Part shown: positions 1-47,701 of the stretch, piece by piece
Layout of the letters: each line of letters starts with the position of its first letter
Position numbering within the stretch: the stretch's first letter is position 1
Assembly (NCBI GenBank): GCA_963774955.1
Contig: CAVZGV010000004.1
Location: 3,522-67,521 of the forward strand
Reading direction: 5' to 3'
DNA from: Candidatus Falkowbacteria bacterium
GTDB lineage: Bacteria; Patescibacteriota; Patescibacteriia; CAIXNZ01
DNA length: 64,000 bases
Notes under the pieces: model-generated
The model's database searches: none
What the model was told of the DNA's origin: nothing
What the model saw: only the letters and a program-made list of their open reading frames with translations
Program-made: the position numbers and the translations under genes

Positions 1-14
1 AGAAGGAGACTCTT

Positions 15-626
15 ATGAACATTGATACACAAGTCCACGAGCTATTTGACTTTGCACTTTCCCGCCGCAACATGGTTCGCGGCAGCGTGGTCGCAGGTTC
101 AGTTGCCATGGCAACAACTGCTGGGCTGAGCAAAGCATTTGCACAGGATCTCACCGATGTTGACATTCTGCAATTTGCCTTGACACTCGAACATCTTGAA
201 GCACGCATGTACAAAGAGATGTTGGCAAAGAACATTCTCACCGGCAAGGATCTGATGTACATGACAAGTTTTGGAGGTCACGAAGCCGCCCATGTCAAAG
301 CCATCAGTGACACACTCATCTCCTTAGGCGCAACGCCAGTTGCACCCAAAGACAACTACAACTTCCCCGAGTTCAATACACGCGAAGCGATTCTCCAGTT
401 CGCCAAGGTTGCCGAAGACACTGGCGTAGGAGCCTATCAAGGCGCAGCCGCTGCCATCAGCAACAAGGCAATTCTGGCAGCCGCAGGCAGCATTGTCCAG
501 GTCGAAGCCCGCCATGCAGCCATCATCAACATACTCTTGGGAATCGACCCCGTTCCAACCGCAGTAACCAATAGCTTAACCATTGATCAGGTGAATGCTA
601 TTGTTGGACCGATTCTTGGCGCATAA
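15..626 (+). CDS. Ferritin-like domain protein with twin-arginine (Tat) signal peptide
   Basis: RBS aaggagac 6 nt upstream. N-terminal SRRNMVRGSVVAGSVAMATTAG is Tat-like. DVDILQFALTLEHLEARMY and EARHAAII motifs are typical of the ferritin-like (Ferritin_2) family. A paralog lies at 4941..5615. Confidence 0.7.
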   Translation: MNIDTQVHELFDFALSRRNMVRGSVVAGSVAMATTAGLSKAFAQDLTDVDILQFALTLEHLEARMYKEMLAKNILTGKDLMYMTSFGGHEAAHVKAISDTLISLGATPVAPKDNYNFPEFNTREAILQFAKVAEDTGVGAYQGAAAAISNKAILAAAGSIVQVEARHAAIINILLGIDPVPTAVTNSLTIDQVNAIVGPILGA

Positions 627-672
627 AGCAAAGAGCGGAATCCACACAAGATCGACCTGATTCAAGAGGAGA

Positions 673-1986: not shown

Positions 1987-1987
1987 G

Positions 1988-3500
1988 ATGGATCACAGCA
2001 TGGAAATGACCGGCACGATGGAAATGACTGATACCATGGAAATGACTGACACAGAAGAAATGTCAGGCGCGATGGAAATGGAAGAAGCACGAAGTGTCGC
2101 AGTGATGAGTGCAGGTCAGCTCCGTTCGACACTCGATGGGCTCTTTGGCGAACACGTACTGCTTGCAGCCAATGCCACCGACGCTGCTTTGCACGGTCGC
2201 AGGATGAGTTCGCAGCCGCAGCCGCAGCGCTTGACCACAATTCCGAAGACATTGCTGGCGCTATCACATTGGTCTACGGTGCAGAAGCAGGCGATGCCTT
2301 CCTGCCATTGTGGCGCAAGCACATCGGTTTCTTTGTGGATTACACCAATGCAGTCGCTACCAAAGATGAAGCAGCCCGCAGCAAGGCAACGGATGATCTC
2401 ACAGCCTATGCCGAAGATTTCGGTGCTTTCCTGGCTTCTGCCAACCCGAATCTGACAGTTGAAGCAGTCAAAAGCTTGCTCGGACCCATGTTGGCACACT
2501 GACAGTAGTCATCGATGCCCAGGCAATCGACGATTACCCAGCCGCATTTATGCACCTACGTGAAGCATATATGCACATGGACATGATCGCAGCCGGTCTG
2601 GCAGGTGCAATTGCTCAACAGTTTCCCGAAACATTCCCTGGCATGGCAGATTCTTCTGCGGCAGGGTTACGCTCCGCACTCAATCAGCTTCTGGCCGAGC
2701 ATGTTGCGTTGGCAGCCAATGCCACCAACGCCGCTTTGGGTGGACGCAACGATGAATTCGCGCCGCAGCCGACGCACTCGACGCCAACAGCGTTGACCTG
2801 TCGAAAGCTATTGCTTCGGTCTATGGTGCAGAAGCAGAGCAATGCCCTTCCTGCCCTTGTGGCGCAAGCACATCGGTTTCTTTGTCGATTACACCAATGC
2901 AGTCGCTACCAAAGATGAAGCAGCCCGCACCAAGGCAACGGATGATCTCACAGGTTATGCCGAAGATTTCGGTGCTTTCCTGGCTTCTGCTAACCCGAAT
3001 CTGACAGTTGAAGCAGTGAAGGGCTTGCTTGGACCCCATGTTGGCACATTGACCGCAGTCATCGATGCACAAGGTGCCAGCAACCCCGAAATGGCATACA
3101 TGCACTTCGTGAAGCCTATGCACACATGAGCATGATCGCCAATCCGCTCAGCGACGCCATTATCGCTCAGTTTCCCGACATCTTTGGCACTGAAGACGCA
3201 GCCATGATGCAGGATATGGGTCAGATGGACGAGATGAGTGATATGGGCGAGATGCACGAAGACGTAGTCATGTCGGCTGCAATGTTGCGCTCCACACTCG
3301 ACCTCTTGTTGGGTGAACACGTAGCCCTGGCAGCCAGCGCAACCGACGCCGCCTTTACACGGTCGGGGTGACGAGTTTGCAGCCGCAGCCAATGCACTGG
3401 ATGGCAACTCGGTTGACATTGCAGGTGCCATTGGACTGGTCTACGGTACAGACGCAGGCGATGCCTTTCTGCCACTGTGGCGCAAGCACATCGGTTTCTT
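1988..3500 (+). pseudogene. Frameshifted copies of the His/Met-rich repeat domain (a disrupted gene or sequencing/assembly errors in a repeat)
   Basis: ORF fragments 1988..2455, 2269..2502, 2550..2918, 2842..3129 and 3126..3371 all encode pieces of the same domain in different frames. Confidence 0.5.
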
Positions 3501-3501
3501 T

Positions 3502-4551
3502 GTGGATTACACAAACGCAGTTGCCCAAGGGGACGAAGCTGCTCGCCAGAAAGCATTGAATGATCTTGATGCCTATGCCGAAGACTTTGGTGCCTTTATC
3601 GAATCTGCCAATCCAAATCTGCCCAAAGCCGCAGTTGCCGAACTTCTCCGCCAACATGTCGCCACCTTGACCACGGTCATTGATGCACAGGGCGTAAAGA
3701 CAGCTCAGGAATCAGGCGACCAGATGAATGCCTATCCAACATTGCGCACAGCCTTTGCGCACATGGATATGGAAGCGAGCGCACTGGCAAGTGGTATTGC
3801 CACCCAGTTCCCGGATCGTTTCCCGGGTATGGTTGACACCCCAGCAGCCGGGTTACGTTCGGCACTGACACAATTGCTCTCGGAGCATGCACTACTCCTG
3901 ATCAAGACCATCGATGCCGCAACTCATTCCCGCACCATCGAGTACGAAGCAGCCTTTGCTGCACTCGACGCCAATAGCATTGATCTTTCGAAAGCGGTTG
4001 GCTCGGTCTATGGCGACGACGCAGGAACAGCCTTCCTGGGTTTGTGGCGTAAGCATATCGGTTTCTTTGTCGACTATGCGCTTGCACTGATTGACAACAA
4101 CGATGTAGCCAAGGAAAAAGCCGCCAACGAACTGACTGGATATGCACAGGACTTTGCAGCCTTCCTTAATTCTGCAAACCCTGACCTACCAGCCGATGTT
4201 GTGGCAGGATCGGTGACCGAACATGCCAAGACCACACTGGCAGCAATCGATGCCACGGTCATGGATGACCCAGCAGCGTATTATGCAGCATTGCGCACCG
4301 CCTACAGCCACATGAGCATGATCGCCAACGGACTTAGCGATGCCATCATCGCTCAATTTCCCGACATCTTTGGTGTTGAAGAGCCAGTCGCAATGGCAGG
4401 TCATGACATGGCAGAAATGACAGCCAGTGAAGAAATGACTGACACCATGGAAATGACCGGTACGATGGAAATGTCAGGCACGATGGAAATGACCGATACC
4501 ATGGCAATGACTGACACGATGACTGACACGATGAGTGACAGAGATGACTGA
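3502..4551 (+). CDS. His/Met-rich repeat-domain protein copy with C-terminal Met-rich tail (MEMTDTMEMTGTMEMSGTM...)
   Basis: 349-aa ORF homologous to the units in 673..1986. The MxM/MEMT tail resembles Cu(I)-binding Met motifs. Confidence 0.55.
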   Translation: MDYTNAVAQGDEAARQKALNDLDAYAEDFGAFIESANPNLPKAAVAELLRQHVATLTTVIDAQGVKTAQESGDQMNAYPTLRTAFAHMDMEASALASGIATQFPDRFPGMVDTPAAGLRSALTQLLSEHALLLIKTIDAATHSRTIEYEAAFAALDANSIDLSKAVGSVYGDDAGTAFLGLWRKHIGFFVDYALALIDNNDVAKEKAANELTGYAQDFAAFLNSANPDLPADVVAGSVTEHAKTTLAAIDATVMDDPAAYYAALRTAYSHMSMIANGLSDAIIAQFPDIFGVEEPVAMAGHDMAEMTASEEMTDTMEMTGTMEMSGTMEMTDTMAMTDTMTDTMSDRDD

Positions 4552-4822
4552 AGAGATGACAGTCGAAGTAGCCATCTCGACCTTCAACTTCAAGCCAGGT
4601 CGAATTGAAGTGCCAGTCGGCACCACCGTTGTTTGGACCAACAATGATGCCATCAATCATACAGTAACCTCGGGTGAACCGGGCGCACCAGATGGCATCT
4701 TTGATTCCGGCAACTTTAATCAGGGCGAACAGTTCTCGGTTACCTTTACAGAAGCGGGTGAATATCCATACTTCTGTAACCGCCACAATGGCATGCGCGG
4801 CGTAATCGTTGTCACACAGTAA
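4535..4822 (+). CDS. Cupredoxin (plastocyanin/amicyanin-like type-1 copper) domain, possibly the C-terminal domain of the upstream repeat protein
   Basis: HTVTSGE ... YPYFCNRHNGMRG gives His...Cys-x2-His-x2-Met type-1 Cu ligands. The Met-rich linker MTEMTEEMT continues across the frame change from ORF 3502..4551, suggesting a frameshifted fusion. Confidence 0.75.
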   Translation: MTEMTEEMTVEVAISTFNFKPGRIEVPVGTTVVWTNNDAINHTVTSGEPGAPDGIFDSGNFNQGEQFSVTFTEAGEYPYFCNRHNGMRGVIVVTQ

Positions 4823-4834
4823 TTACTATCCAGA

Positions 4835-4865
4835 CATCGGTAGGGTTGTGAAAACCCTACCGATG
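4835..4865 (+). terminator. Perfect 12-bp stem hairpin (catcggtagggtt/aaccctaccgatg) downstream of the cupredoxin gene
   Basis: Inverted repeat seen directly. No strong U-tract follows, so this is a stem-loop and possible terminator. Confidence 0.45.
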
Positions 4866-4940
4866 CAAATAACAAACTCATTTTTCAATCATCAACAATA
4901 TCATTCATCCAGAATGCCCAGTTTGGGCAAGGAGAATCTA

Positions 4941-5615
4941 ATGAAAAACACACTTCAAACTTCTGAACTCAGCCGACGCAACTTTCTCAAGACCAGCGCA
5001 GCCGCACTTTTTGCAGCGACCATGATCGGAACCCGGGTCATGTCTACCCCCGCCTTTGCCCAAAACAGCGTAACCGATCTCGACATTCTCAACTATGCGC
5101 TGACACTCGAACATCTGGAATCACGAGCCTATAAGGATGTCAACAATCTCGGTTTGCTCACAGGCAAAGCCAAGGAATACTTTGTAGAGATTGGCAATCA
5201 CGAAGCAGCCCACGTAGTGGCACTGACCGGAACCATCACCAAACTTGGCGGCACACCGGTTCGAGCCCAGGAAAAGTACAACTTCCCGACCTTCAAGACA
5301 GAGAAAGAAGTACTTGAATATTTCCAGACTTTGGAAGAGTTGGGTGCGGCAGCCTATTTGGGCCAGGCAGGAAACATTCAGGATAAAGATCTGTTGACCG
5401 CAGCCGTAAGCATTCACAATGTTGAAGGTCAACACGCAGCCGTGTTGGCAGACCTGACCGGCAGAGAACCATCCCCCGCCTTTGCCCAGCCCAAGACAAT
5501 GGACCAGGTGTTGGTCGTGGTAAAGCCGCTCTTGAGCAGTGCGCCCGCTGCCATGCCCCGCACCGGGCGTGGTGAAAACAGAATTTCGCCCGCATTCCGC
5601 AGCGCAGGCTGGTAA
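4941..5615 (+). CDS. Ferritin-like domain protein with Tat signal (paralog of 15..626)
   Basis: RBS aaggagaa upstream of MKNTLQTSELSRRNFLKTSAAALFAAT (RR motif). DLDILNYALTLEHLESRAY and EGQHAAV motifs. Confidence 0.7.
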   Translation: MKNTLQTSELSRRNFLKTSAAALFAATMIGTRVMSTPAFAQNSVTDLDILNYALTLEHLESRAYKDVNNLGLLTGKAKEYFVEIGNHEAAHVVALTGTITKLGGTPVRAQEKYNFPTFKTEKEVLEYFQTLEELGAAAYLGQAGNIQDKDLLTAAVSIHNVEGQHAAVLADLTGREPSPAFAQPKTMDQVLVVVKPLLSSAPAAMPRTGRGENRISPAFRSAGW

Positions 5616-5752
5616 TCACCTTGCCGTTACCTTTAAGTCACGCTTTCTGCTCTGTAAAAAGTGTGACTCGATACAGCGCATCAGCATCATAAAGAGTCCG
5701 GGCAACGTTGCCTGGACTCATTTCTTCTCAATTCGCCCACTTTACAATCACA

Positions 5753-6556
5753 ATGAAAACCAGACACGCACTTATCACATTTCTATTTTTAATGATTGCC
5801 ATGGGTAGCACAATCGGCGCCAATAGTGTTGGTGGTCATGCCGCAACGGTGACGCCGACTGCCACAGCAACCCGAATCCGCCATGTCACAATCAAGCCAC
5901 GTGCGACAGCCACACCCGCTTTCACTGCCACGGCAACTGTAACGGCTACTACAACTGTAATAGTGCCCTCGGCGACAGCCACGCCAGTTTCTGGCTTGGG
6001 TGGTTCTATTGAAGCCACGGTTCAAGCCTATATCGACCAAACCCGAACCGTAACGGGCAGCCAGTCGCTCTCCGCCGCTGTGGTGGCAACCAATGCACAG
6101 CCGATTCGCCTGGTCATTCCATCCTTAAAGGTGGACACGCTGATTGAAACTGTAGGGCGCGATAAAGATGGTGCGATGGACATTCCGAGCAAGGTGGAAG
6201 ATGTGGCATGGTATGGATTGGGAACGGCACCGGGCGAAGTCGGCAACGCAGTGATCGCCGGCCATCTCGACCTGGTGGATGGCTCGCCTGCCGTCTTCTG
6301 GAATATCGGCAAGTTGAAAGTCGGCGATGAAGTGATTGTCTATGATGCCGACAACGTGGCGTATCATTTTCAAGTCACGGGCAATCAACGCTACCAATTT
6401 GATGGCGCACCGGTCGAGGATATCTTTGGCTTTGCGTTGAAGAGTCAGCTCAATTTGATCACCTGCGCCGGGACGTCGAATCGCAACAGTCGCAACTATT
6501 CGAATCGGCTGGTCGTTTACACTGAATTGGTAAAGACAGTTCAACCGAAAGAGTAA
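5753..6556 (+). CDS. Sortase-family transpeptidase
   Basis: N-terminal TM, Thr/Ala-rich linker, conserved sortase His (AGHLD), LITCAG catalytic Cys motif and a downstream Arg. Confidence 0.8.
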   Translation: MKTRHALITFLFLMIAMGSTIGANSVGGHAATVTPTATATRIRHVTIKPRATATPAFTATATVTATTTVIVPSATATPVSGLGGSIEATVQAYIDQTRTVTGSQSLSAAVVATNAQPIRLVIPSLKVDTLIETVGRDKDGAMDIPSKVEDVAWYGLGTAPGEVGNAVIAGHLDLVDGSPAVFWNIGKLKVGDEVIVYDADNVAYHFQVTGNQRYQFDGAPVEDIFGFALKSQLNLITCAGTSNRNSRNYSNRLVVYTELVKTVQPKE

Positions 6557-6657
6557 TTTCTTTGCCTATGTATCCTTTAGGCAGGGAGAAAGCGTCAATG
6601 ATAGCGATGAAGGGATGACAGGATGATATCTCCGCATCCCTTCATCCCTTCATTCTT

Positions 6658-9600
6658 TCATCGCTGAACCATCGGCAAGAAAACAAACTTCAGCGGCATA
6701 AGAATTTGCCCGTTGGATGCACTGGCGTTGGGGTTTACAACCTGCACCAACCCACCTTTTTGTAAATCGGCATAGCTGACCGCAGCCGTCGCCACATAGG
6801 CGTTGACAACTGTAGTGGTACGGACAACGCCATTTATGCGAATCTGCGCTCCGTTGACAAAGTCGCTGCCGCTGACCACCAACTGCAACGCACCACTCGA
6901 ATCCACATAAAGACTGCTCACCTGCGCAATTGCATTCTGTCCAGCCGCAAGAATCGTAAAATTCTTTGGGGCAGAATCGTCCACACCTGGCGTTTGAATC
7001 GTCACCTGGGGCTTGCCCGCAGATGTTACATCCGCCGCACGGAGGTGGATCAACAATGTATTGTCATCTTGCACCACGGTTTCGCGTGGCTCGCCATTCC
7101 AGGTTGCCAGCGAAGACGCATCTGCCAACGTGGAGAAGCTGAATCCCTTCACCGTAATCCACTGTTCACCGCTGCCTGCCGCAATCGAAGCTGGCTGGAA
7201 ACCGCTGATGGTTGGCTGTGCGGGCGAATTGGCAGCGGCTACGTTAAACTTGACCGGCTTCGACGCTTGGCTGGCCTTTATGTCGGCAGCCACAACATCC
7301 ACAACATCCGCCACAACTGCACTATTGACAACTGAGATGACCAATGGACCAGGTTCACCAACATCGCTTGCTGCCAACTCTGCCAGCAACATCACGCTAT
7401 TGACATAGGTCGTTTTAACGGGGGAAGCCATCGAGCAACGCCTGACTTTGTGCTGTAAAACCAGCCCCGTTGATGATCACATTGAGTGGTTCACCGCCGT
7501 AGTTGGCAGCGGCCGGACTGAGACTTTCCACCGACGGGATCGGCGCGGCATTGGGCGCAGTGATCGCCAATGCTTGCGCAACGGAATCGCCGCCGCCGGG
7601 AGCGGCTGTGCGCACCAGTACATTCGCCGAACCTGCGTTGACAATCAGCGCAGCCGGCACGGTTGCCTTCAGTTGATGATCACTGACAAAGGTGGTCGCC
7701 AAGCCTGTACCATTCCAAACGACAGTGGAATTATTGTAAAAGCCTGCGCCATTGACAGTCAACGTAAAGTTTGCAGCGCCGGCTTCGACCGAAGCTGGCG
7801 AGATATTTTGTAGCAGAGGTGCACGACGCTGACTGCGTAATTGCTGTATCGCTTTGCCTTCAAAAAGACCGGTATAAACATTCTGGTCATCCTGGTTGGC
7901 AACCAGATAGCCGCACCGTCCATTGCCAAATCCGCTTGATTGGGGATTGCCGAGAGCTTGCCGTTGAGCAGATTGCGGGCATAAGCTTTGACGCCGTCCC
8001 CCGTCCACAGCGCCACCAACAAACGGCTGCCTTCGGCGTCGTGGCTGATCGAAACGTGATACGGCCCATCGCCCACCGCCATCGCTTCCACGGGTGTGAG
8101 ATAGCCATCAGTGGGATTGCGTTCGAAGATCTGCACTGCATCGGAGTTTAAGCTTGCCACATAAAGTTTCCATCCGGGCTGACAGCAATTTCGATGGCTC
8201 CATCCGGACCAGAAATCCCATTTTCGCCGTTGCGGTAATGGGTGAGATAGCGCAGCGTGCCATTGCTGTTGCGGCTAAAGACGACCAACGCATCATCGTC
8301 ACGCGCTGCCACGTAGACATTTTTCCCGTCCTTGCTTGCCAATACCCAAAGGCACCGCCCAACAGGTCAATGCCTTCAATGGTGCGGGTAAATTTCTGTG
8401 AATAATAGAGCGTGCCGTTGTCAGCGTTGCGTTGCAGCACGGTCAGGGTAGCATCGCTATTGCCCGTGACATAAAGATTCTGGTCATCCGGGCTGATGTC
8501 GAGCGCCGGGCAGAATTCATGGCGTCAATTGGGCAGAACTTGAGAATCGGAAAGTTGCCATTGAAGGAGATGCCACAAACATAGGTTGTGCCAGTGGTAA
8601 TCACCTGTGTCGCCGAGAGCGTACCATTCGATTCGACCGTGGCAACGCCAACCCCTGCACCACCGGAGCTGGAATAGTATACATTTTTGCCGTCCGATGA
8701 ATAGCGAATACCAGTGATCGTGTTCATATTGGGCTGGCTAAACTTATCTGTCAGACTGGCAATACCCGTTGTAGGATCAGAGACCGTATGGACAGCAATT
8801 TCATTATTTTCCCAATGTCCTGCCAACAGTTGCTTGCCATCCGGGCTAAAAGCCATCCCCATGATCTGGCGTTGCGGCAGTTCGGCGTACTTGTTGCTCA
8901 TTGCCAGCGGCTCGGGAAAAGCTGGCGGCACAGACTCGCAGGAAATATCATATTCCAGCAGCGGGTCGGTTGGATCGTTGGTAGTAATGACCAGCGTGTT
9001 GTAGAAAAGTCCCGCTTCGCTCGGCGTGCAGCTAATCTCAATCTTCATCTCGCCACCGGGAGGAATGGTGACATTGGCTGCTGTGCCGGCTGCATTCACC
9101 CCGCACCTACAATTAACAACAAACTTGATGGTTTGCGCCGGGCATCCTTGAGATTGACCGTGGCTGCCATCGGGTTTGCGCCTTGATTGCTGATGGCAAG
9201 CTGAGTTTTAGCGGTGCCACTGGGTGGCGTCGAGCCTGTGCTGATGGGTCCCGGTGGCTGGCTGCGCATAATAATATTCGGGATTGCTGATCATTTTGCA
9301 CGAGATCGGATAGCGAATTTCCGGCTTGTCGGGCAGGTCGGTTTTTAATCAGGATCATGCCCTCCTGCCAGCCCAGCGAAGTTGGCGTACAACTGAAAGT
9401 CAGCTCCTGCGATTGATTGCGCCCCAAACCACCACTGGTAGGGCCACTTTCCAATGTGTAGGTGCCACCGGCATCATTTTCAATCACCATTGACCAGGCG
9501 ATGGAGCCGCCGCCTTTGTTTTTGAGTACCAATTTCTGGCTGCTGCTCCATACCTTGCCAAAGACTGTCAAAGGAAACTGAAAGCCTGCGCCTTCGGGCT

Positions 9601-11437
9601 AATGGAGAAAAATTCTGGCGGTAGCGAACCCACCTCCAGTGCCCCCGCATCACACTTGGGTCCCTGCGGTCGTTGGCCTTGAATTTGGTCTTTGTTGGCA
9701 AGAAATAAGGGTTGCAGTACAGGGTCAATGCAATAATCATCCTCACCGAGATCGAGCGCAGGGCTGCCATTGCTCACCTTGATCGAGAGAAATTCGGCTT
9801 CGGGCATTTCGGTACGCCGTTGTTGGCAAGTCCTTCGAGCTTAACTTCGCCGATTTTTCACCAGCACATCTTTCAGGGTTAAATCGACGCCGTTATCAGC
9901 CAAAGCGCCGGGCAAGGTTCTTTGAAAATGTTGCCACCCCATGAACCAAGCCAGCCATAGCAGGGTGTATCCATGATGGAGTTTGCCATATAGACTGAGC
10001 CATTGCCGTTGTTGCTGACGCTTGAGCCGGGGTTATTGGCATTGGCACGCACGACGGTCGAATGCCAGATGTTGATCTCACCGCCCTGGTTGATGGCAGC
10101 ACTACCATTCATGACAAAGTTGTGACCATTTTCGACGCCGCCACCCGTAATTGCCAGATTTTCCGCCACTGTGCTGTTGACCAACCACAGCTTGCCACCC
10201 GTGCGATTCATAATTGCGCCGCCAAACTTCGCTTCGTTATCATGAAGTAGAAATATGACGAATAATCAGTGTGCTGTCGTTGAGAATGGCACCACCCAGG
10301 CGTGCCTGGTACGGGGCCATCAGTACGCGCCTTGTTGTCGCTGATCGCCACATCCAGCAGGCGCAGATCGCCCTGGTTGTAGATGGCACCACCGCCTTTG
10401 GAACGTTGGGTATAATTCTTGAAAATTTCGGTGCGTTCCAACTCCATGTAGCCGCTATTGTAGATGGCACCGCCACCGCTGCTATCATCGTTGAATTGAT
10501 ATTGTCCGGGCAGCTTGGCAGGAACAGTGGTTTGATAGACCCAGTTGTCGTGAAATTTACTGTCACGAATAACGGAATGGTCAGCTCGCTGCCTCCATGA
10601 CCGGCGTGTACGGCACCGCCATTGAGTTCGGCATGATTGTTGAAAAACTCGCAGCGATCCAGCAACACCTGCACACCGCCGCTGGAAATGGCGCCACCCG
10701 ATTGGCGGGCAGTATTCTCTTGAAATTTACTTTTGACACAGATAAACGAACCGACATCGATGCGCCACTGCACCGCCATCGCCATTGCCGGAGCCATTAT
10801 CCGCAATGTTTTGGAAAAATTCGACTTCGGTCACGCGTACAGAACCGCTGCCTTTGATCCAAATGGCACCGCCAAATGGGCGTCGTCCATGTTGCAGCTT
10901 CAACTTTTGCAGGATCAGTTCACCGCCGCCCACAATAAAAATACCCTCGGCACGATTATTCTTGCCATTTCCGTCAATTGTCAGCGCGCCATTGCCGTTG
11001 ATTGAAATCTTCTTGGTAATATTGGGCAATTGATCAGGGTTGCTGAGCAGATAGGTGCCAGGCAGCATGTTGATGGTGTATTCGCTGAAATTAGCAACAG
11101 AGACAGCCCCACAGCCTTGATTGCCTTGGGGATTGCCAGAGACAGTGGCTTGTAGTGCCTCTCGCAGCGAACATTTCGAGGATGCCTTGTATTGGTATGC
11201 CGTGCTCCACTCATCGACCAGCGTGTTCACGTTAATGGTAAATGAAGCATCCACCGCAGCAGCTTGCAGATCGCCAGCACCTTGCGCATCCGCCACGGGC
11301 TGCACGGCGATTGGTGCATCGACGAATGGGGTGTTCACTTCGTCCTGGGCGAAAGCTGGCATAATTGTGCCGGGAAAAATCAAAGAAAATAATAAAAGTG
11401 CGTTGACCATTCGTGACCACAAAAATCTCTTCCTCAT
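6658..11437 (-). pseudogene. Large (roughly 1600 aa) secreted adhesin-like protein with signal peptide, parallel beta-helix (GGAI repeats), 7-bladed beta-propeller-like and Ig/IPT-like domains, broken by many frameshifts
   Basis: Minus-strand ORF fragments from 10727..11437 (signal peptide MRKRFLWSRMVNALLLFSLIFPGTIMPAFA) down to 6658..7431 are collinear in different frames with domain-consistent content. Confidence 0.6.
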
Positions 11438-11855
11438 AAATCCATCCTTTCAAAAAGTTGCAATTCGGGACTGCTCAATCCTACGCTTCTTTGCCAAATG
11501 CCTTAATTGTGCGCATCACCATGTAACTGTGATGCACTGCACAAACATGAAATTGGCGTCATTTATGATCGCAGTGTAGCAAGCAAGACGCTATTGTTCA
11601 TCCATCGAAAGATGTATTGTGAGGTTTATCAACGTGGTTGGGGTAACGCAGGATTGCTTTCCTGCGCTTCGAATGAAGAAAGACCATTATGACAATAGCA
11701 CATTTAAAAGCAGAACCCGTAGGTCACATCTCTGGTGTGACTTTGTTGGTCTGCGACAAGTGTTCGTCAATCCACTATCGGTCAGACTGACTGCGTTACA
11801 AGACAATCAATGTCACGCCAGAGGCGATGACCTACGGATTTAGCTTTTTGTTGAA

Positions 11856-12702
11856 CTACACGTGGGTATGCACCAAGCGCTGTTGGGCATTTTTGCGAAG
11901 CGAGGTAATTGCCGGTCCAATCGAAAAGATCAGTGCTTGCAGGAGCACAATGCTGGCGCCAGAGGCAATATCGGCAAAGTAGCTAATATACATGCCAACA
12001 AGCCCGCTCAGCACGCCGAGTGTTACAGAATAGATGACCATCCGATTAAAACTATCGGTCAGCAGGCGCGCCGTAATGGCAGGCACCACCAACGCAGCCG
12101 CAATCAAGGTGACGCCAAGGATCTGCATCGAAGCAATCAATGCAGCCGCCAACACCAACGCAAAGAGTGTATCCATCCACTCAGTTTGCACACCATAGAC
12201 ATTGGCAACTTCGGCATCAAAGGTTGTAAAGAGAAGCTGTTTGTAGAAGATGAAAATCAAGATGGCCACCAACAATGCCACAACCGCAACCACCATGACA
12301 TCCTGCTTGGTGACGCCCAAAATGTTACCAAAGAGTGCCGCATCAAACGAACGGGTAAAACGCCGATACCGGCTGATCGTACGCCACGCCCATTGCAAAG
12401 CTGGCAGTGGTGATTACGCCGATAGCAGCATCGGCACCGATACGGGTACGGCGCACGGTTTGGTTGATAAGCACAGCGGAGACAAATCCCCACAAGCCAG
12501 CGCCAATGTAAAAATTCCATTCCATTACAAAGGAAACCACCGCACCCCCAAAGATGGCGTGTGACAGTCCATGTCCAATGTAGCTCATCCCGCGCAGCAC
12601 GATGTAGACGCCAAGTAAGCCGCAAAGGGCACCGCATAGAACAGCAGCAATAGTGCCATTGCGAAAAAATTCAAAAGCAAAAGGTTCAAGAAGATTGGGC
12701 AT
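11856..12702 (-). pseudogene. ABC-3 family metal (Zn/Mn) ABC transporter permease, frameshifted
   Basis: Two overlapping minus-strand ORFs (12343..12702 and 11856..12398) encode consecutive TM segments typical of ZnuB/MntB-type permeases. Confidence 0.6.
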
Positions 12703-12962
12703 AGGTTGAATGATGAGTTAAGAATTGCGAATTGCAATTGCGAGTTGAGAATTGAAATAATATCGACAGGGCGGTTGATTCACGTTGCGCAAGAACACCC
12801 AAACATATCTCTATCTCTCCCCTCCTGTAAGTATCAGGAGGAGGATCGTTACGGGACAGTGGAGGTCAACTTCATCTGTCCTGTGATGGCTCCCTCCCTG
12901 TTTTGGGGAGGGCTGGGGTGGGGTGTTTTTACGTAACATGATTTACTGATTCACTTACCCAC

Positions 12963-13623
12963 TCACTCCTTCAAGCCCACACGGGAATAGCCAAAGTCAC
13001 CCTCTTCAATTTCGTCCAAATGACCCAGGATGGGATTGGGCATAATATCGCGATAGCCATGATTATGGGGACGCTGCTGCACAAATATCATCTCATTTTG
13101 GCGGATCACAAGCATGTCACTTTGATAGGTCTCGTTGAGCGTTTCCTCTTCAAAAACCTGCTCTGGCGTGCCCTGCGCAATGACGCGTTTGTTGAGGCAG
13201 ATGACCCAGGGCAAATGATTGGCAGCAGCGTTGAGATCGTGCGTCGTCAGCAGAATCGTCATGCCCTGTTGGTTCAGGTCTGCCAGCAGGTGAAGAATAC
13301 TTTCGGCGGTACGCATATCAACACCCGAAGTTGGCTCATCCAGCACCAGCAGATCGGGGTCTCCGATGAGTGCCCGCGCCAGAAAGACACGCTGTTGCTG
13401 TCCACCCGAAAGATTGCGAATGTGACGCTGCGCCAGATCACCGATATCCAGCCGTTCGAGGATGCCAGCGACCAATGCTCGTTCTGCCCGTGTCGGGCCA
13501 GGGCAAGAACGTAGACTGGCGGATACGTCCCATCAGCACAACTTGCTCCACAGTTACTGGGAAGTTCCAATCGACAGTTTCCAATTGGGGGACATAGCCA
13601 ATATAGGGCTTCTTTCGTCCCAA
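12963..13623 (-). pseudogene. Metal ABC transporter ATP-binding protein (ZnuC/MntA-like), frameshifted and 5'-truncated (Walker A missing)
   Basis: LSGGQQQRVFLARAL signature, LLVLDEPTSGVD Walker B and H-loop in 12963..13475. IGYVPQ segment is in another frame (13438..13623). The ORF stops abruptly where base composition changes. Confidence 0.6.
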
Positions 13624-13631
13624 TTTTTGGC

Positions 13632-13925
13632 TTGTGTCCTGAGGGCAATTTCACTATCGACCTGATCGACTTTACTATTGCCGATGAATCTTTCCCTGGT
13701 GATCCAAAAAAAAACTTTCACCAAAAAACCCTAGCCTACTTCTTTTATCATGAAAGGTATCCTGAGAAATACAAAGAAGAAGGGCTGATTCTGGAAGCAC
13801 AAGACTGCGGGGACTGGGGCTGGTCTCTGACCATGTCGCCCGGAAAGATCATTGACATGGAGGTAAAATATGATCCGCAGGATCTTAGCCAGGTGAAAAA
13901 AATAATTGCAAACCTGATCAACTAA
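13632..13925 (+). CDS. Hypothetical protein
   Basis: 97-aa ORF followed by an intrinsic terminator, in intermediate-GC sequence. Confidence 0.4.
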   Translation: MCPEGNFTIDLIDFTIADESFPGDPKKNFHQKTLAYFFYHERYPEKYKEEGLILEAQDCGDWGWSLTMSPGKIIDMEVKYDPQDLSQVKKIIANLIN

Positions 13926-13939
13926 TCATTCCAGCAAGA

Positions 13940-13966
13940 GAGCCAGGACACCCCTGGCTCTTTTTT
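13940..13966 (+). terminator. Rho-independent terminator
   Basis: gagccagg-acacc-cctggctc followed by tttttt. Confidence 0.7.
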
Positions 13967-14044
13967 AAATAAAAAGAAAACCGCCTTTGCAGACGGTTTA
14001 TAACTTGAAAGTGTTATTGTTACCATTTACCTAAAAAGGATAAA

Positions 14045-14135
14045 TGGCGGAAGGGGTGGGATTCGAACCCACGCGCCATTGCTGGCCTAACGACTTAGCA
14101 AGCCGCCCTCTTAAGCCTAACTTGAGTACCCTTCC
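14045..14135 (-). tRNA. tRNA-Ser (anticodon GCT), with CCA encoded
   Basis: Reverse complement folds as a tRNA with long variable arm, anticodon loop TTGCTAA, T-loop GGTTCGAATCC. Confidence 0.85.
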
Positions 14136-14148
14136 TTAAAAAGAACAA

Positions 14149-14270
14149 TGGCGGAGAGGGAGGGATTTGTCCGCCAAAGGCGGATCCGCCCTTGGGGGAA
14201 ACCCCCGACCCCTTTTACAGGACTCCTGTTTTCAAGACAGGCGCCTTAAGCCGCTCGGCCACCTCTCCGC
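14149..14270 (-). tRNA. tRNA-Ser(TGA)-like gene of aberrant length (about 122 nt) with extra palindromic sequence between variable arm and T arm
   Basis: Acceptor GCGGAGA/TCTCCGC, D-arm TGGCCGAGCGG, anticodon stem-loop CCTGT-CTTGAAA-ACAGG. It lacks a canonical GTTCGAATC T-loop and contains GGCGGATCCGCC and GGGGGTTTCCCCC palindromes. Confidence 0.5.
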
Positions 14271-14287
14271 AAAAATATTTTATTTAA

Positions 14288-14363
14288 TGGTGGAGCGGAC
14301 GGGGATCGAACCCGCAACAACTGGCTTGCAGGGCCAGTGCTCTCCCAATTGAGCTACCACCCC
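14288..14363 (-). tRNA. tRNA-Ala (anticodon TGC)
   Basis: Anticodon arm CTGGC-CCTGCAA-GCCAG, G3:U70 pair, T-loop GGGTTCGATCCCC, CCA encoded. Confidence 0.85.
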
Positions 14364-14381
14364 ACCGGAAAAAATAAGTGT

Positions 14382-14457
14382 GGACGCACGGAAGGGATTT
14401 GAACCCCTGATCATGGATTTGCAATCCACAGCCTTACCACTTGGCTACCGTGCGCCA
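14382..14457 (-). tRNA. tRNA-Cys (anticodon GCA)
   Basis: Anticodon stem-loop GTGGA-TTGCAAA-TCCAT, T-loop GGTTCAAATCC. Confidence 0.8.
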
Positions 14458-14803
14458 TAGTACCTGACAATTTAGCATATTTAAACATAATTGTCAATAA
14501 TTATTGTAAATAAAACCGCCACTTGCGTAGCGGTTGATTTTTTGGCGGGGCGGGAAAGCGCGAAGCTCTCAGCCAGTTGGCTGGACTGACCAATGGCATG
14601 ACCGCCCCAAACTTAATTTACTTTGTTCGTCTGATTAGACTTTTCTTTTTCCTTTTTTATTTTATAACTCCTGCAAGTAGTAAAATCACCCTTGCAGATT
14701 TCAACCTGAGTAGCTTTAACCACTAAGGGCAAAGATAATTCAGTTGCCATACATGAAACTACCTGAGTTACGATTGCATATGGGCAAGCCATAAATCACC
14801 CAC

Positions 14804-15115
14804 CTAGCCGTAAAGGATCTTATTAGGCACTTCAGAATGATAAAGGACTGTCACACTGGCTGAATTCGGCCTTTTTTCGTTTTCCTTAACAGCAGCTGCA
14901 TCAGCTTCACGCTTAGTGTCATAACAAGCATTGCCACCGATGGTCACAACGACATGCTGCCGAAGAAAAGCCTTTCCCCGAGGATTCTTTTCCTTAATCT
15001 GCTTTTCCAGCTCTTTGGCCTGCGCCAGAGTGTCCAGATCCTGAAAAGTCCAACCTCCAGGAACCTCGGCAGCTTGATAAATTAACCGATATTCTCCTGC
15101 TTTCTCATTTGACAT
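14804..15115 (-). CDS. Hypothetical protein
   Basis: 103-aa ORF with AGGAG-like RBS. Confidence 0.4.
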   Translation of the reverse strand: MSNEKAGEYRLIYQAAEVPGGWTFQDLDTLAQAKELEKQIKEKNPRGKAFLRQHVVVTIGGNACYDTKREADAAAVKENEKRPNSASVTVLYHSEVPNKILYG

Positions 15116-15343
15116 TAAATCCTCCTTTTGGCTTGAACAGACTCAAGTCTTTTATCTATTCGATTATCTCATTTTACCTAATTTTGAAATAAAGTCAAGC
15201 CCCTTGGCATTTGGAAAAATTCAGCGGATATTATATAATATATAAAGGGAGTAACTCCTTATTTTTATTGTTACAAATCTACAAATTGGCTACGGATCAA
15301 CAAATATTTATCCAGACACCAATTAGTAGATTAGTAAACATCT

Positions 15344-18031
15344 ATGTTTTTAGAGAAACTCGAAATCCAAGGTTTCAAGTCTTTTGCGCAAAAGACTGTT
15401 TTAGAATTTCCCAACCGGGTCAATAGCCACATGGGTATTACCTGTGTGGTCGGGCCTAATGGTTCAGGCAAATCCAACGTGGCTGACGCCATTCGCTGGG
15501 TTTTGGGCGAACAATCAATTAAAACCCTGCGCGGCAAAAAAAGCCAGGATGTGATTTTTTCCGGTTCGGATAAGAAATCTCGTTTAGGGTTTGCTGAAGT
15601 TACCATGTATTTGAATAATGAGGATAAATCAGCTGACATTGACTATACTGAATTAGCCATTACTCGACGCGTCTACCAAACTGGCGAAGGTGAATATTTT
15701 ATCAATAAGAACAAAGCTCGTTTAACCGATATTCAGCTACTTTTAGCTAAAGGCGGGTTTGGCCAAAGAACCTATTCAATCATTGGACAGGGCATGGCTG
15801 ATTCTGTTTTGTCCGCGTCTTTAGCAGAACGAAAAGAACTTTTTGACGAAGCAGTCGGGGTTAAACAATTTCAGATAAAACGAGAGCAAGCCCTGAATAA
15901 ATTCAAAGCAACCATGGAAAACCTGGCCCAGACAGAATTAACTTTACAGGAATTGGAACCGCGCTTAAAATCATTAACCAGGCAGGTGAAAAAATTGGAA
16001 AAACGAGAAGAAGTCGAAAAGGACTTAAAAGTCCTGCAATTTGACTATTTTTCCCAAAACTTACAGACATTTAATAGGAACATTGCCAGCGTTACCAGTC
16101 AAAAATCAGAGCTGGAAAAAGTATATGCCAATCTGACCAAAGAAATAAGGGAAATTCAGGATAAAATCAATGAATTTTCAGGGGAAAGTTCCCGCCAAAA
16201 TATTTTTGAAAAATTACAGGCTGATTATAATACCTTAATTCAGAAAAAAAACAGTTTGTTACGCGACCAGACCCTGATTAAAGCAAAACTGGATGTGCAC
16301 ATGGAAAAGCAAGGTCAAACTAATATTGTCTGGCTGACGAAAAAGCTTGAAGAAATTAATAGCCAGCAATCAGGGCTAAAACAACAAATTTCCGACACCC
16401 AGGATTTACTCAACAAGGAAAAGATAACCTTACAATCAAAGAACAATACCTTAGCTGCTTTAAACCAAAGAATCGAACGGGTCAAAGAAGAACTCAACCA
16501 AATACAAAAGACTGCTCAAGTTCCGTTTCAGGCTGAAAAAGAGTTAGAAATAATTTTCAACCAACAGCAAGAGCTGGTAAAAAAACTTTTAGCCGTTGAA
16601 AAGCTCGAAGATCTGGCTGCGATAAAAACTCTGGCCAGAGAAATTTCCCAAAAGCTTTCTATCTATCTGGAAAAATCCAAGGACAACAAACAACAAGGGA
16701 CAGACAATCTGCTTAGTTTACAAGCTCAGTTAGAATCATTGGTTACTCAAAAAAATGAGTTGAACCAGGAAATTTCGCAGACAAATGTTAACATCCAGCT
16801 GAAAAATGAGAAATTGCATAGCCTAGAAGCTGAGATAACAAAATTCAAAAATGAGCAAACTAAAATCAGCCAGGAAATCAGCCTAACCCAGCTTAGCCCG
16901 GATGATAAAAAGTTTACCGAACAGGTCATGGCTGAAATAAAAAATATTCAGGATCAAATCGACACTTTGGATCTAAGCGTTAAAGATAGTGAATTAAAAA
17001 TCAGCCAATTTAATTTGGAAGAACAAAATAAAAAAGAACATTTGATTGCCTTACAAAAAGACTCACAAGAAAAACAAGCGCAAAGCAACCAATTCAATCA
17101 GAAAATCAATGATCTTAATATTGACCTGGCCAAATATTCCACCAAAAAAGAAGACCTGGAAACGGAAATCAGACAGGAAAATTTAGATCTGACTGAAATT
17201 CAAAAATTTCAGTCAAGCACCGAACTCGGAGCTGATACTTATCAGCGCATTCAGCAATTAAAACGTCAGCTGGAAATTATCGGCAGTATGGATGAAGAAA
17301 CTCAAAAAGAATATGATGAAATCAATGAGCGTTATAATTTCTTAAAGGAACAATCAGACGATCTAAGAAACGCCATTACTTCCCTGCAAACTGTAATTGA
17401 AGAATTGGATAAAACTATTCGGGAACAATTTGATCATGCTTTCAAAGAAATCAATAAGGAATTCCAAAAATATTTCAAAGTCTTATTTAATGGCGGACAA
17501 TCAGAACTGGTTAAGGTAAGTTCCGAAGAGATTAAAAAAGATGAGAAAGAAGAAAAAGAAGGGCAAGAAGGGAAAGAAGGGCTTGAACTAGAAGAAGAGA
17601 CCGGTGTTTTGGCCCAGGCGGAAAAATTTGCCAAGGCCATGAAACAGAGGGAGAAAGAAAGCTATGCCGGTATTGAAATCAGGGCTGTACCTCCGGGCAA
17701 AAAAATCAAAACGATCAGCATGCTTTCCGGCGGTGAAAGAGCTTTAACTTCCATTGCTTTGATCTGCGCCATTATTTCCAATAACCCTTCCCCGTTTATT
17801 GTTCTGGATGAAGTTGACGCTCCGCTGGATGAAGCCAATTCTGAAAGATTTGACGCTATTTTAACGGAACTGGCCAACAAAACCCAATTTATAGTCATTA
17901 CTCATAACCGCGTCACTATGCATTATGCTGATGTCTTATACGGTGTAACCATGGGTGACGACGGTATTTCCAAATTACTCTCAGTCAAACTGGCTGATGC
18001 AGAAGATATGGTTGGTAGAGCAAGAGGCTAA
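15344..18031 (+). CDS. smc: SMC-family chromosome segregation ATPase (short form, 895 aa)
   Basis: N-terminal MFLEKLEIQGFKSF...GPNGSGKSN (Walker A), long coiled-coil, C-terminal LSGGERALTSIALICAI signature and FIVLDEVDAPLD Walker B. Confidence 0.8.
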   Translation: MFLEKLEIQGFKSFAQKTVLEFPNRVNSHMGITCVVGPNGSGKSNVADAIRWVLGEQSIKTLRGKKSQDVIFSGSDKKSRLGFAEVTMYLNNEDKSADIDYTELAITRRVYQTGEGEYFINKNKARLTDIQLLLAKGGFGQRTYSIIGQGMADSVLSASLAERKELFDEAVGVKQFQIKREQALNKFKATMENLAQTELTLQELEPRLKSLTRQVKKLEKREEVEKDLKVLQFDYFSQNLQTFNRNIASVTSQKSELEKVYANLTKEIREIQDKINEFSGESSRQNIFEKLQADYNTLIQKKNSLLRDQTLIKAKLDVHMEKQGQTNIVWLTKKLEEINSQQSGLKQQISDTQDLLNKEKITLQSKNNTLAALNQRIERVKEELNQIQKTAQVPFQAEKELEIIFNQQQELVKKLLAVEKLEDLAAIKTLAREISQKLSIYLEKSKDNKQQGTDNLLSLQAQLESLVTQKNELNQEISQTNVNIQLKNEKLHSLEAEITKFKNEQTKISQEISLTQLSPDDKKFTEQVMAEIKNIQDQIDTLDLSVKDSELKISQFNLEEQNKKEHLIALQKDSQEKQAQSNQFNQKINDLNIDLAKYSTKKEDLETEIRQENLDLTEIQKFQSSTELGADTYQRIQQLKRQLEIIGSMDEETQKEYDEINERYNFLKEQSDDLRNAITSLQTVIEELDKTIREQFDHAFKEINKEFQKYFKVLFNGGQSELVKVSSEEIKKDEKEEKEGQEGKEGLELEEETGVLAQAEKFAKAMKQREKESYAGIEIRAVPPGKKIKTISMLSGGERALTSIALICAIISNNPSPFIVLDEVDAPLDEANSERFDAILTELANKTQFIVITHNRVTMHYADVLYGVTMGDDGISKLLSVKLADAEDMVGRARG

Positions 18032-22534: not shown

Positions 22535-24524
22535 TTATAGTAACAATCCTACGATTAGTAATGCCACAATATTTAGAATTTTAATCATAGGGTTAATCGC
22601 CGGACCAGCAGTATCTTTATAAGGATCGCCAACTGTATCACCGGTCACAGCAGCCTGATGAGCAAAAGAACCTTTGCCACCGTAATTACCTTCTTCAATA
22701 TATTTCTTGGCATTGTCCCAAGCACCACCGCCGGAAGTCATTGAAATAGCAACGAATAAACCAGTAATGATTGAACCAACCAATAAACCGCCTAAAGCGT
22801 AAACACCCAAAGTAAAACCAACAATAATTGGAACTAAAACCGGAATCAAAGCCGGAATAATCATTTCTTTAATTGCCACTTTGGTTACAATATCAACTGT
22901 TTTGCCATAATCAGGTTTTTCAGTACCCTGCATAATGCCAGGCTTTTCTTTAAACTGTCGTCTGAACTTCTTCCACTACTGAACCAGCAGCCTTACCCAC
23001 TGCTTGCATGGCCATGGCGCCAAAATAATATGGTAATAAACCACCAATAAATAAACCGACTAAAACTCTGGGATCATTAATGGCAAAAACATATCCGGTG
23101 CCTAAAGCATGAGTAAAATCAGCAAATAAAACTAAAGCGGCTAAAGCGGCTGAGGCAATGGCATAACCTTTGGTTACTGCTTTGGTAGTATTACCAACAG
23201 CATCCAAAGGATCAGTAATATCTCGAACTTCCTTAGGCATATCCGCCATTTCCGCAATGCCACCGGCATTATCAGTAATTGGGCCGTAGGAATCAATGGT
23301 TACAATAATACCTGCCATTGAAAGCATGGACATAGCAGCAATAGCAATACCATAAATATCAGCTAACCAGTAAGCAGCTAAAATTGCCGCACAAATAACA
23401 ATAATCGGCCAAGCAGTTGATTTCATGGAAACGGCCAAACCGGCAATAATATTGGTGCCATGACCTGTTTGAGAAGCAGCAGCAATATCTTTAACCGGTT
23501 TATATTGTTTAGCAGTATAATATTCAGTAATTATAACCATGGCCGCCGGTGACAACCAAACCGATTAAAGAGGCTAAATATAAATTTAATGACATTAAAT
23601 TGATCGTTAGTGCCCATTAACCAAATAGTTACAGGATAAAAAGCAATAGCAGCTACAATGCCAGAAGCAATTAAACCTTTATATAAAGCAGCCATAATAT
23701 TTTTCTTAGCACCTAAACGGATAAAAAAGCTGCCAATGATGGAAGCAATAATAGAAACACCGCCCAAAACCAAAGGATATATAATGGCATTTTCCCAACC
23801 ACCAAATAATAATGAGCCTAAAAGCATGGTCGCAACAGCTGTCACAGCATAAGTTTCAAATAAATCAGCAGCCATACCAGCGCAATCACCGACATTATCA
23901 CCGACATTATCAGCAATTACTGCAGGATTGCGAGGATCATCTTCAGGAATACCAGCTTCAACTTTACCGACTAAATCAGCACCTACATCAGCGGCTTTAG
24001 TAAAAATACCACCGCCTAAACGGGCAAAAATTGAAATTAATGATCCGCCAAAACCTAAACCGATCAAAGCCTGAACATCTTTAAAAATTAACCAAAATAA
24101 TGAAACACCCAGTAAAGCCAAACCAACAACTAAAAATCCGGTCACTGAACCGCCTTTAACAGCTACGTCTAAAGCTGCTTTTAAGCCGCTTTTAGCTGCC
24201 TCGGCTGTCCGGACATTAGCACGAACAGAAACATTCATACCGATATAACCGGTAGCCGCAGATAAAATCGCGCCGACTAAAAAGCCCAGCCCGGTTTTCC
24301 AGTTTAATACCGACCGTTATTAAAACAAATAAAACAACCGCCACAATAGCAATTGTTTTATACTGACGATTTAAATAAGCGCTGGCACCTTCCTGAATGG
24401 CTTTGGCAATAGCCTGCATTTTCTCATTGCCGGCCGGCATTTTTAAAACAATTTTTATCAGGATTAACCCATAAATTACAGCCAATAAGGCTGCAATTAA
24501 AGCAAAAATAAGTCCCGTAGGCAT
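22535..24524 (-). pseudogene. hppA: Membrane-bound proton-translocating pyrophosphatase (H+-PPase), split by at least 3 frameshifts
   Basis: Four collinear minus-strand ORFs. N-terminal IAKAIQEGASAYLNRQY, middle [16 protein letters not shown]...[24 protein letters not shown]-terminal [21 protein letters not shown] are hallmark H+-PPase motifs. Confidence 0.75.
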
Positions 24525-25070
24525 AAAATTAAAATTAGTAATAAGTAATTAGTAGCAGGAAATAAGGATTATGGAATTTAAATTTATCCTTATTGCCTAT
24601 TACCTATTACCTATTTCGCCTGCCTGCCGGCAGGCAGGTAAAACAAAAAAAGCTGACAACTGCCAATTTCCTATCACTTATCATTTTATCTATTTGGCCC
24701 AAAAGTGTCAACTTTATTTTTAGTAATAATTGTTTATAAACCGGACTAAAAATACAGATATTTTTTATTTAATGTGAGCCAAAAACACCGAATTTCCTTT
24801 GACTCGAATCCTAAATTTTGCTATTATATATCATATAATTCATTTTGCTTTTCAAGGTGTTTTTGTTTTCTAAACTCGATAATATTTGGCTAAAATAAGC
24901 CTTAAAATACCTGGCAATTTGAAAAAAGGATTAAATATATTAGTCAGTCAATTAAAAGCTTTATTATCAGGTTACTGATTATTAGCTTCAAAGGCTTTAG
25001 CAATTTAATAAAGTCCTTTTTTTATTTACTTTTAAAGGGCCTGAAATATCCGATAAAAGCCTGCGTTATC

Positions 25071-29533: not shown

Positions 29534-29639
29534 ATTATATCATATATTATAAATATCGTCAACCCAGCCTTTAAAAATAAAACCTGCCATTCGAAAACAG
29601 CAGGTTTTGAGCGAAACAATGCTCTGCTCGTCAATTCAG

Positions 29640-47154: not shown

Positions 47155-47226
47155 GGACCCCGTAGTTTAATGGATAGAACACTAGCCTTCTAAGCTGGAT
47201 ATCGAGGTTCGATTCCTCGCGGGGTC
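47155..47226 (+). tRNA. tRNA-Arg (anticodon TCT)
   Basis: Acceptor GACCCCG/CGGGGTC, anticodon loop CTTCTAA, T-loop GGTTCGATTCC. No CCA encoded. Confidence 0.85.
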
Positions 47227-47329
47227 AAAAGTCAGTTTGGAATTGTGAGCAAGAGCAACAGTAGCCTAATCTTGCCAAATACTCTTGCTCTAGCTAACAA
47301 GAGAAACGGTATTATTAATTTGTAACAAA

Positions 47330-47677: not shown

Positions 47678-47701
47678 CTCTTGCTCTTGCACAAATCTCT
47701 T

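Follow-up and report, generated by a model that had tools for sequence, protein, structure and literature searches.

A probable chimeric join between Chloroflexota and Parcubacteria DNA in a public contig filed with a CPR genome

Long-read metagenome assemblies have been documented to contain contigs that join different phyla, as well as indels without read support, and such chimeras are identified by GC content, coverage and gene taxonomy changing together (bioRxiv 10.1101/2025.04.22.649783). The locus described here resembles these published cases in several respects. GC content and gene taxonomy shift at a single point, frame-disrupting indels are present, and the join lies between distinct phyla. 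It differs from them in the type of data behind it, as the published chimeras are defined by read clipping and a coverage step, whereas the window (the whole 64,000-nucleotide stretch of DNA that was analysed) is known from its sequence alone.

A second group of described systems comprises tRNA-associated genomic islands and integrative elements. In common with these, the window contains a block of foreign composition that ends less than 1 kb from tRNA genes. In contrast to them, the boundary is not located at a tRNA 3' end, and neither an integrase in the block nor a flanking direct repeat in the window was found. Furthermore, the cargo consists of ordinary genes cut mid-operon, and the native neighbouring gene is truncated instead of being preserved.

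At the gene level, the closest described systems are the metal ABC importers of the ZnuABC/MntABC type. The ATPase fragment and the adjoining permease in the window match the znuC-znuB pair of a Chloroflexota-like genome (L006, GCA_964269725.1) at 85-96% amino-acid identity, and the ABC signature and Walker B are kept in the ATPase. Unlike complete importers of this type, the window lacks Walker A, the first 64 residues of the ATPase and znuA, and both of its genes carry a frame break. The reading preferred here, with a probability of roughly 75%, is that a Chloroflexota fragment and a Parcubacteria (CPR) genome were falsely joined within the window, and that the contig is chimeric and does not carry a genomic island.

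Position of the junction and the genes cut by it

The window is composed of two blocks, with 52.4% GC in positions 1-13,636 and 40.8% GC in positions 13,637-64,000. Across the boundary, the tetranucleotide correlation with the profile of the left block drops from ~0.91 to 0.26, while that with the low-GC profile increases from 0.36 to 0.93. The log-odds track of a third-order Markov model changes its sign at ~13,550-13,600. The change in composition at ~13,636 is abrupt and lies well past chance expectation. An analysis based on GC content only had placed the change-point at 14,456. This position was corrected by the Markov and homology analyses, and it had been misplaced because the GC-rich tRNAs hide the true boundary.

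A sharp switch in composition had been described in the original prediction, which also proposed comparing the tetranucleotide signature of the left block with that of the rest. This comparison shows a sharp change of profile at the site, and the tetranucleotide, Markov and homology analyses agree on the switch, with the breakpoint at 13,633-13,638. The predicted GC contents of 58-60% and about 35% were right in direction, being high on the left and low on the right, but too extreme in size. Values of 58-60% are restricted to the final ~400 bp ahead of the break, and the low-GC side has a mean of ~41%, with 1-kb segments ranging from 28 to 47% outside two embedded high-GC genes.

The features around the junction are as follows:

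11,856-12,705, minus strand: znuB-type ABC-3 permease (85-96% amino-acid identity to znuB of L006; DNA alignment)
12,963-13,635, minus strand: znuC-type ABC ATPase fragment (Pfam ABC_tran; tblastn with P0002; DNA alignment)
13,633-13,638: breakpoint, at which homology ends from both sides
13,638-13,925, plus strand: 3' part of a CPR gene, codons 58-154 of 154 (similarity to P0001; L005 DNA)
13,941-13,995: two back-to-back terminator-like hairpins (read from the sequence; similarity to L005 stops in the second, at 13,985)
14,045-14,135, minus strand: tRNA-Ser (GCU), CCA encoded (ARAGORN; Rfam, 50.4 bits)
14,152-14,268, minus strand: tRNA-Ser (UGA) with a 30-nt hairpin insertion in the T-loop (Rfam only, 42.5 bits)
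14,288-14,363, minus strand: tRNA-Ala (UGC) (ARAGORN; Rfam)
14,381-14,454, minus strand: tRNA-Cys (GCA) (ARAGORN; Rfam)
14,613-18,031: first undisputed Parcubacteria genes, namely a 59-aa ORF (minus strand), a 103-aa ORF (minus strand, 14,804-15,115) and SMC (plus strand, 15,344-18,031)

The znuC fragment corresponds to residues 65-286 of 286-aa homologues, with an identity of 86-87%. According to the translation and the Pfam ABC_tran match, it contains the LSGGQ signature and Walker B (LLVLDEP). As only residues 65-286 are covered, the fragment has no Walker A (GPSGAGKT, residues ~37-44), nor was this motif found elsewhere in the window. The truncation of the ABC ATPase had been anticipated correctly, and comparison with the 286-aa homologues specifies it as the loss of residues 1-64 including Walker A. 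The znuC-znuB pair is syntenic with its counterpart in L006, at ~85% nucleotide identity. There, the genes are arranged in the order znuA-znuC-znuB, while the window lacks znuA and the start of znuC. Relative to L006, znuC and znuB each contain one 1-nt insertion (+1 at ~13,495 and at ~12,380, respectively), and conservation is otherwise good.

On the other side of the break lies a CPR gene that has lost its start. The 154-aa protein P0001, which is encoded on sequence L005 from an independent metagenome, is 95% identical to the window's product over its final 97 residues only. The DNA of L005 aligns to window positions 13,638-13,985 with 97.4% identity and is unrelated on both flanks. In the window, this gene has neither a promoter nor codons 1-57, the start included, whereas L005 keeps all 154 codons. 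No relatives of the 154-aa protein were detected in JGI metagenome contigs.

Homology to znuC stops at 13,633-13,635, and homology to the CPR gene begins at 13,638, or possibly at 13,632. The sequence common to the two sides at the breakpoint amounts to ~3 nt at most. Composition and gene-level taxonomy change together at a single point, with the switch in phylum taking place within 6 nt. At this one breakpoint, two unrelated and divergent genes of different phyla meet, each without its 5' end. The missing gene halves, i.e., residues 1-64 of znuC and the first 57 residues of P0001, were not detected elsewhere in the window by tblastn. By eye, no adapter-like sequence was seen at the junction.

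Frame breaks in the left block

The sequence to the left of the junction contains the following features, in addition to znuC and znuB:

1-13,636: Chloroflexota-like block (52.4% GC; continues leftward beyond the window; at least 22 frame breaks)
15-626, plus strand: ferritin-like protein, intact (Pfam Ferritin_2, E = 1e-38)
673-1,986, plus strand: LPXTG cell-wall-anchored protein, intact (homologues are Chloroflexota LPXTG proteins of 410-445 aa, 55-63% identity)
1,988-4,551, plus strand: putative gene or genes in five successive frames, with ~4 frame breaks (ORF map)
4,941-5,615, plus strand: ferritin-like protein with a TAT signal, intact (Pfam; start codon confirmed by exact look-up)
5,708-6,556, plus strand: sortase, intact, start codon uncertain (Pfam Sortase, E = 4e-20)
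6,661-11,437, minus strand: surface-protein gene of ~1,590 codons with CSLREA, PMP repeats, beta-propeller and IPT/TIG (orthologues of 1,534-1,613 aa)

The best named homologues of the left-block genes, among them those for the LPXTG protein, the sortase, ZnuB, ZnuC and the surface protein, belong to Anaerolineae, Herpetosiphonaceae, Caldilineaceae and Roseiflexaceae, all of which are Chloroflexota. The ORFs in 1,988-4,551 gave no match in Pfam or NCBIfam, and scans with both collections revealed no integrase, transposase or other mobile-element gene among the left-block ORFs. Given these homologues and the match of znuC-znuB to the znuA-znuC-znuB operon of L006, the block is ordinary Chloroflexota chromosome that was cut mid-operon.

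The 13.6 kb of the left block contain at least 22 frame breaks, a count that includes ~4 in 1,988-4,551 inferred from the ORF pattern alone, compared with three in the 50.4 kb on the right. This corresponds to a ~20-fold step in density. The surface-protein gene at 6,661-11,437 accounts for 16 frameshifts of ±1, consisting of seven insertions and nine deletions. These were located by frameshift-aware alignment against three orthologues, and the three alignments agreed independently on all 16 sites. Once corrected, the reading aligns with the orthologues from the first to the last residue at 53% identity and contains no stops and no large deletions. An apparent nonsense codon at 10,727 was rejected, as the frameshift-aware alignment shows that two compensating shifts enclose it and that the reading between them is out of frame. 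All 16 shifts are located within 7,424-10,762, while the other 1.4 kb of the gene are clean. If the shifts were distributed uniformly along the gene, the chance of such clustering would be (3.34/4.78)^16 = ~0.003. Three of the 16 sit on the block's only three copies of the 9-mer GCGCCGGGC, and at 8,505 the homologues imply GCGCCCGGGC as the true sequence.

Neutral decay is expected to add nonsense mutations and deletions to frameshifts. The frameshifts of the left block are indel-only, clustered and partly motif-specific, and they look technical rather than the result of decay. Such a pattern is what an under-supported long-read consensus produces, although the source of error could also be sequence context or methylation instead of depth. 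Thus, the left block is rich in frameshifted genes, as originally predicted, with regard to their number but not to their supposed nature. The proposal of a decaying island is not supported, as one gene aligns end to end with 16 shifts of ±1 and no stop, and three of the shifts lie at one 9-mer.

An error model involving homopolymers only was also considered and rejected, as a run of at least 4 lies near only 3 of the 16 shift sites, against a background of 23%. Homopolymer runs of at least 5 are 3.6 times commoner on the right, clean side, and two genes of high GC content on that side, purL and a Tas-like gene (1.55 kb, 54% GC), are intact. For these reasons, neither homopolymers nor GC content accounts for the difference in frame breaks between left and right.

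The gene purL (53,786-57,688; 3.9 kb, 52% GC) provides a comparison with genuine foreign composition. It is similar to the left block in its GC content of ~52% against a background of ~40%. It differs from the block in being complete and free of frame breaks, with native genes on both sides. A second relative of the right side, L008, shares the purL/FtsH neighbourhood with the window, and purL and its flanks are conserved there at 85% nucleotide identity with the same GC contrast. This is one anciently acquired high-GC gene that is held by the genome.

The quality of the sequence is not uniform within either block, and this counts against the proposed chimera. About 6 kb of the left block are free of frameshifts, and the errors are therefore patchy. 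On the right, all three frameshifts fall, at 22.9-24.3 kb, in an H+-pyrophosphatase gene (22,535-24,548) that is otherwise well conserved. They may stem from a locally poor consensus or from a genuine pseudogene of recent origin, and poor consensus or real pseudogenes are therefore not confined to the left block.

Origin of the join

Both sides of the junction are recorded on one 455,071-bp contig in NCBI/ENA. The join therefore belongs to the record itself and does not stem from the excision of the window. The exact ferritin-like protein encoded at 15-626 is on record solely on this contig.

In the proposed origin of the chimera, bases 1-13,636 would be derived from a low-abundance Chloroflexota genome, and bases 13,637 onward from an abundant Parcubacteria genome. 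The join would most likely have been made by a chimeric long read or by a false long-read overlap. With the left side backed by few reads, the two sides would have differed in read depth. For two sides of a single molecule from one population, equal depth and similar consensus quality would be expected. The poor consensus quality of the left side thus suggests lower read support there. On the simplest reading, far fewer reads stand behind the left block, a coverage step that is inferred from consensus quality alone.

Exact copies in other public runs were found for two of the three CPR proteins tested and for none of the four left-block proteins, a difference with a Fisher p of ~0.14 that lends this origin weak support, given the small numbers. 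The identical CPR proteins are located on short Logan contigs from two other public runs (ERR12035938 and ERR15459710, in which the identical CPR strain is present), and one of these contigs ends at approximately window position 14,605. JGI metagenome contigs do not contain the 33-mer that spans the junction, while the same-strain Logan contig stops short of the junction at ~14,605.

Alternatively, the junction could be real. A Parcubacteria cell would then have taken up at least 13.6 kb of chromosomal DNA from a member of the Chloroflexota, perhaps its host or a neighbour, and integrated it into its chromosome by illegitimate recombination, and the 5' end of the 154-codon gene beside the tRNA operon would have been destroyed. 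This is considered unlikely. It is consistent with the presence of both sides on one public contig, and a microhomology of at most 3 nt is the form expected of illegitimate recombination. Furthermore, the locus varies between close relatives, as L005 differs from the window on both flanks, including beyond 13,985. The differences on the right flank make a real rearrangement at this locus conceivable. The right side encodes ComM and a PilT-like ATPase, both of which are related to DNA uptake, and purL shows that the lineage can retain genes of foreign composition. The island may be carried by a minority strain only, which would explain the poor consensus, as such an island would likewise give low depth and many consensus errors.

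Several observations argue against a real junction. Genes for mobility or integration are lacking in the block, and the cargo is ordinary chromosomal DNA cut mid-operon, with znuA and the start of znuC missing in comparison with L006. The frame breaks are indel-only, with 16 shifts and no stop in a gene verified by homologues, and some of them are motif-specific, which is not the pattern of neutral decay. No independent sequence with the junction was found, as there was no match in the JGI metagenomes, and no left-block protein was present in the runs that hold identical CPR proteins. A more specific version, in which over 13 kb of Chloroflexota chromosomal DNA became integrated beside the tRNA operon of a CPR cell independently of homology, maybe recently, in a minority strain and with host-derived DNA taken up via the competence machinery, is doubtful and slightly less probable than a real junction as such.

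If the contig is chimeric, the main value of the finding lies in quality control. In that case, at least 13.6 kb of indel-laden Chloroflexota DNA would be present in a 455-kb contig that is publicly filed under a CPR genome. The apparent CPR repertoire would be inflated by a sortase, LPXTG proteins and metal transport, and comparative CPR studies would pick up false signals of horizontal transfer and pseudogenes. The comparison of indel-only, motif-linked breaks with composition-matched controls on the same contig also offers a reusable test, which does not require reads, for distinguishing consensus error from decay. A real junction would document a rare event, namely the large-scale integration of DNA across phyla in an ultra-small symbiont. 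If the DNA were in addition host-derived, the junction would show in direct physical form that DNA had passed in bulk from a host to an epibiotic CPR bacterium, and it would indicate the host lineage.

The right flank and the tRNA operon

The right side of the window encodes SMC, ComM, PNPase, FtsH, XerC/D-like and PilT-like proteins, among others. Its sole tyrosine recombinase is located at 45,443-46,393, far to the right of the junction. SMC (895 aa) is 81% identical to its counterpart in a Candidatus Parcubacteria MAG (L001), and the downstream gene order is conserved. Upstream of SMC, the gene order is not kept in L001 and tRNAs are lacking; hence, this MAG is uninformative on the native sequence to the left of the tRNA operon.

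The four tRNA genes foreseen next to the break are present. All of them are encoded on the minus strand, 410-820 bp past the break, with three detected by ARAGORN and the fourth by Rfam. The terminator-like hairpins at 13,941-13,995 separate the truncated CPR ORF from the convergent tRNA operon. Repeats of the tRNA cluster of at least 16 nt are not present in the window, and the far boundary of the block falls outside it. The idea of a decaying island linked to these tRNAs is not sustained, given that the break lies inside two protein genes and that the block has no integrase and the window no tRNA repeat.

Short-read assembly graphs are well known to collapse at conserved tRNAs. With tRNA genes close by, a graph-based error might have joined the two blocks at a stretch common to both genomes, for example a conserved tRNA. 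Such an origin is highly improbable, as the homology switches at 13,633-13,638, within coding sequence on either side and 410 bp short of the nearest tRNA. L005 and L006, which serve as proxies of the parental sequences, have no k-mers in common at the junction. The tRNA operon is separated from the break by ~350 bp of CPR-like sequence (97% to L005), and the join is therefore not located at a tRNA. In addition, the density of indels points to long-read data and not to a short-read graph. An arbitrary join point with at most ~3 nt shared fits a chimeric or false long-read join, but not a graph collapse at a repeat. Of the two origins proposed initially, the metagenomic mis-join is the better supported, but the join does not lie at a conserved tRNA as suggested, with the break 410 bp away in coding sequence.

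The tRNA operon itself has two further features. A putative promoter-like TTGACA...TAAATT, read by eye, is located at ~14,465-14,500, just upstream of tRNA-Cys. The T-loop of tRNA-Ser (UGA) contains 35 nt where the Rfam model has 5. This tRNA was missed by ARAGORN because of the 30-nt insertion in its T-loop, and a canonical 90-nt tRNA-Ser(tga) is called only once these 30 nt are removed.

Frame breaks and repeats on the two sides of the junction

The motif GCGCCGGGC occurs only three times in the Chloroflexota-like left block, at 8,503, 9,135 and 9,905, and at every one of these copies a 1-nt deletion is inferred in the surface-protein gene. The true sequence at these sites is likely GCGCCCGGGC, which contains a CCCGGG site. 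This points to a possible systematic error tied to sequence context or methylation. In the same block, the znuC-znuB spacer (12,706-12,962) is about 170 nt longer than that of the Chloroflexota-like relative L006. It contains short tandem repeats of the AATTGCG/AATTGCA type and a palindromic element of the GGGAGGGCTGGGGTGGGG type.

On the CPR side, three frameshifts break up the gene encoding an H+-translocating pyrophosphatase (22,535-24,548, minus strand), which now reads as four ORFs. One or more of these shifts is a non-homopolymer 1-nt insertion within the EEVRRQF motif. All other long genes on this side are intact. The frameshifts could reflect poor consensus sequence at this locus, or the gene may genuinely have become a pseudogene in recent times.

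tRNA genes and adjacent elements

The T-loop of tRNA-Ser(UGA) (14,152-14,268, minus strand) is interrupted by a 30-nt GC-rich hairpin, TCCCCCAAGGGCGGATCCGCCTTTGGCGGA, and its removal restores a canonical tRNA-Ser of 90 nt. The insert may have disrupted the gene, it may be an intervening sequence that is processed, or it may stem from an error in the assembly. The 3' CCA is encoded in all four tRNAs of the cluster adjoining the junction (14,045-14,454); it is not encoded in the Arg-UCU and His-GUG tRNAs deeper in the CPR part (47,156-47,786). The latter two are separated by an ORF, which by eye resembles a four-helix-bundle "intervening sequence" protein:

47,294-47,677, ORF between tRNA-Arg-UCU and tRNA-His-GUG, 28% GC

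An imperfect hairpin of about 70 nt with 60% GC (GGCGGGGCGG…CCGCCCC; 14,540-14,612) is located between the putative tRNA promoter and the 59-aa ORF. It has no match in Rfam, and the sole independent contig covering this area stops within it, at about 14,605.

A compositionally foreign purL and hairpin arrays around a Tas-like gene

53,786-57,688, minus strand, large single-chain purL, 1,300 aa, intact; counterpart at 10,001-13,918 in L008

The GC content of purL is 52%, compared with about 40% for the genome. Since the related CPR contig L008 (JGI 3300037810) retains both this contrast and the neighbouring genes, the comparison indicates that purL was acquired long ago and has kept its composition since.

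29,600-32,400 and 34,100-35,100, hairpin arrays on either side of the following ORF
32,440-33,990, minus strand, Tas-like protein, 516 aa, 54% GC

The long arrays are free of ORFs and have a repeat unit of about 222-231 nt. Hairpins of three types make up the units; their loops vary and their stems are conserved, the stem pairs being …GCGAGACA/TCGTCTCGC…, …GCGGACA/TCGTCCGC… and …GGGGACA/TCGTCCCC…. The C-terminal part of the 516-aa protein matches the NCBIfam family "TIGR-Tas system RNA-guided endonuclease" with E = 2.8e-20, which falls short of the family cut-off, and shows a weak match to an IS110-family transposase in the PDB. Faure et al. 2025 (PMC12045711) described a TasR clade from CPR bacteria that is accompanied by arrays of stem-loops, and the protein with its bordering hairpin arrays fits this clade.
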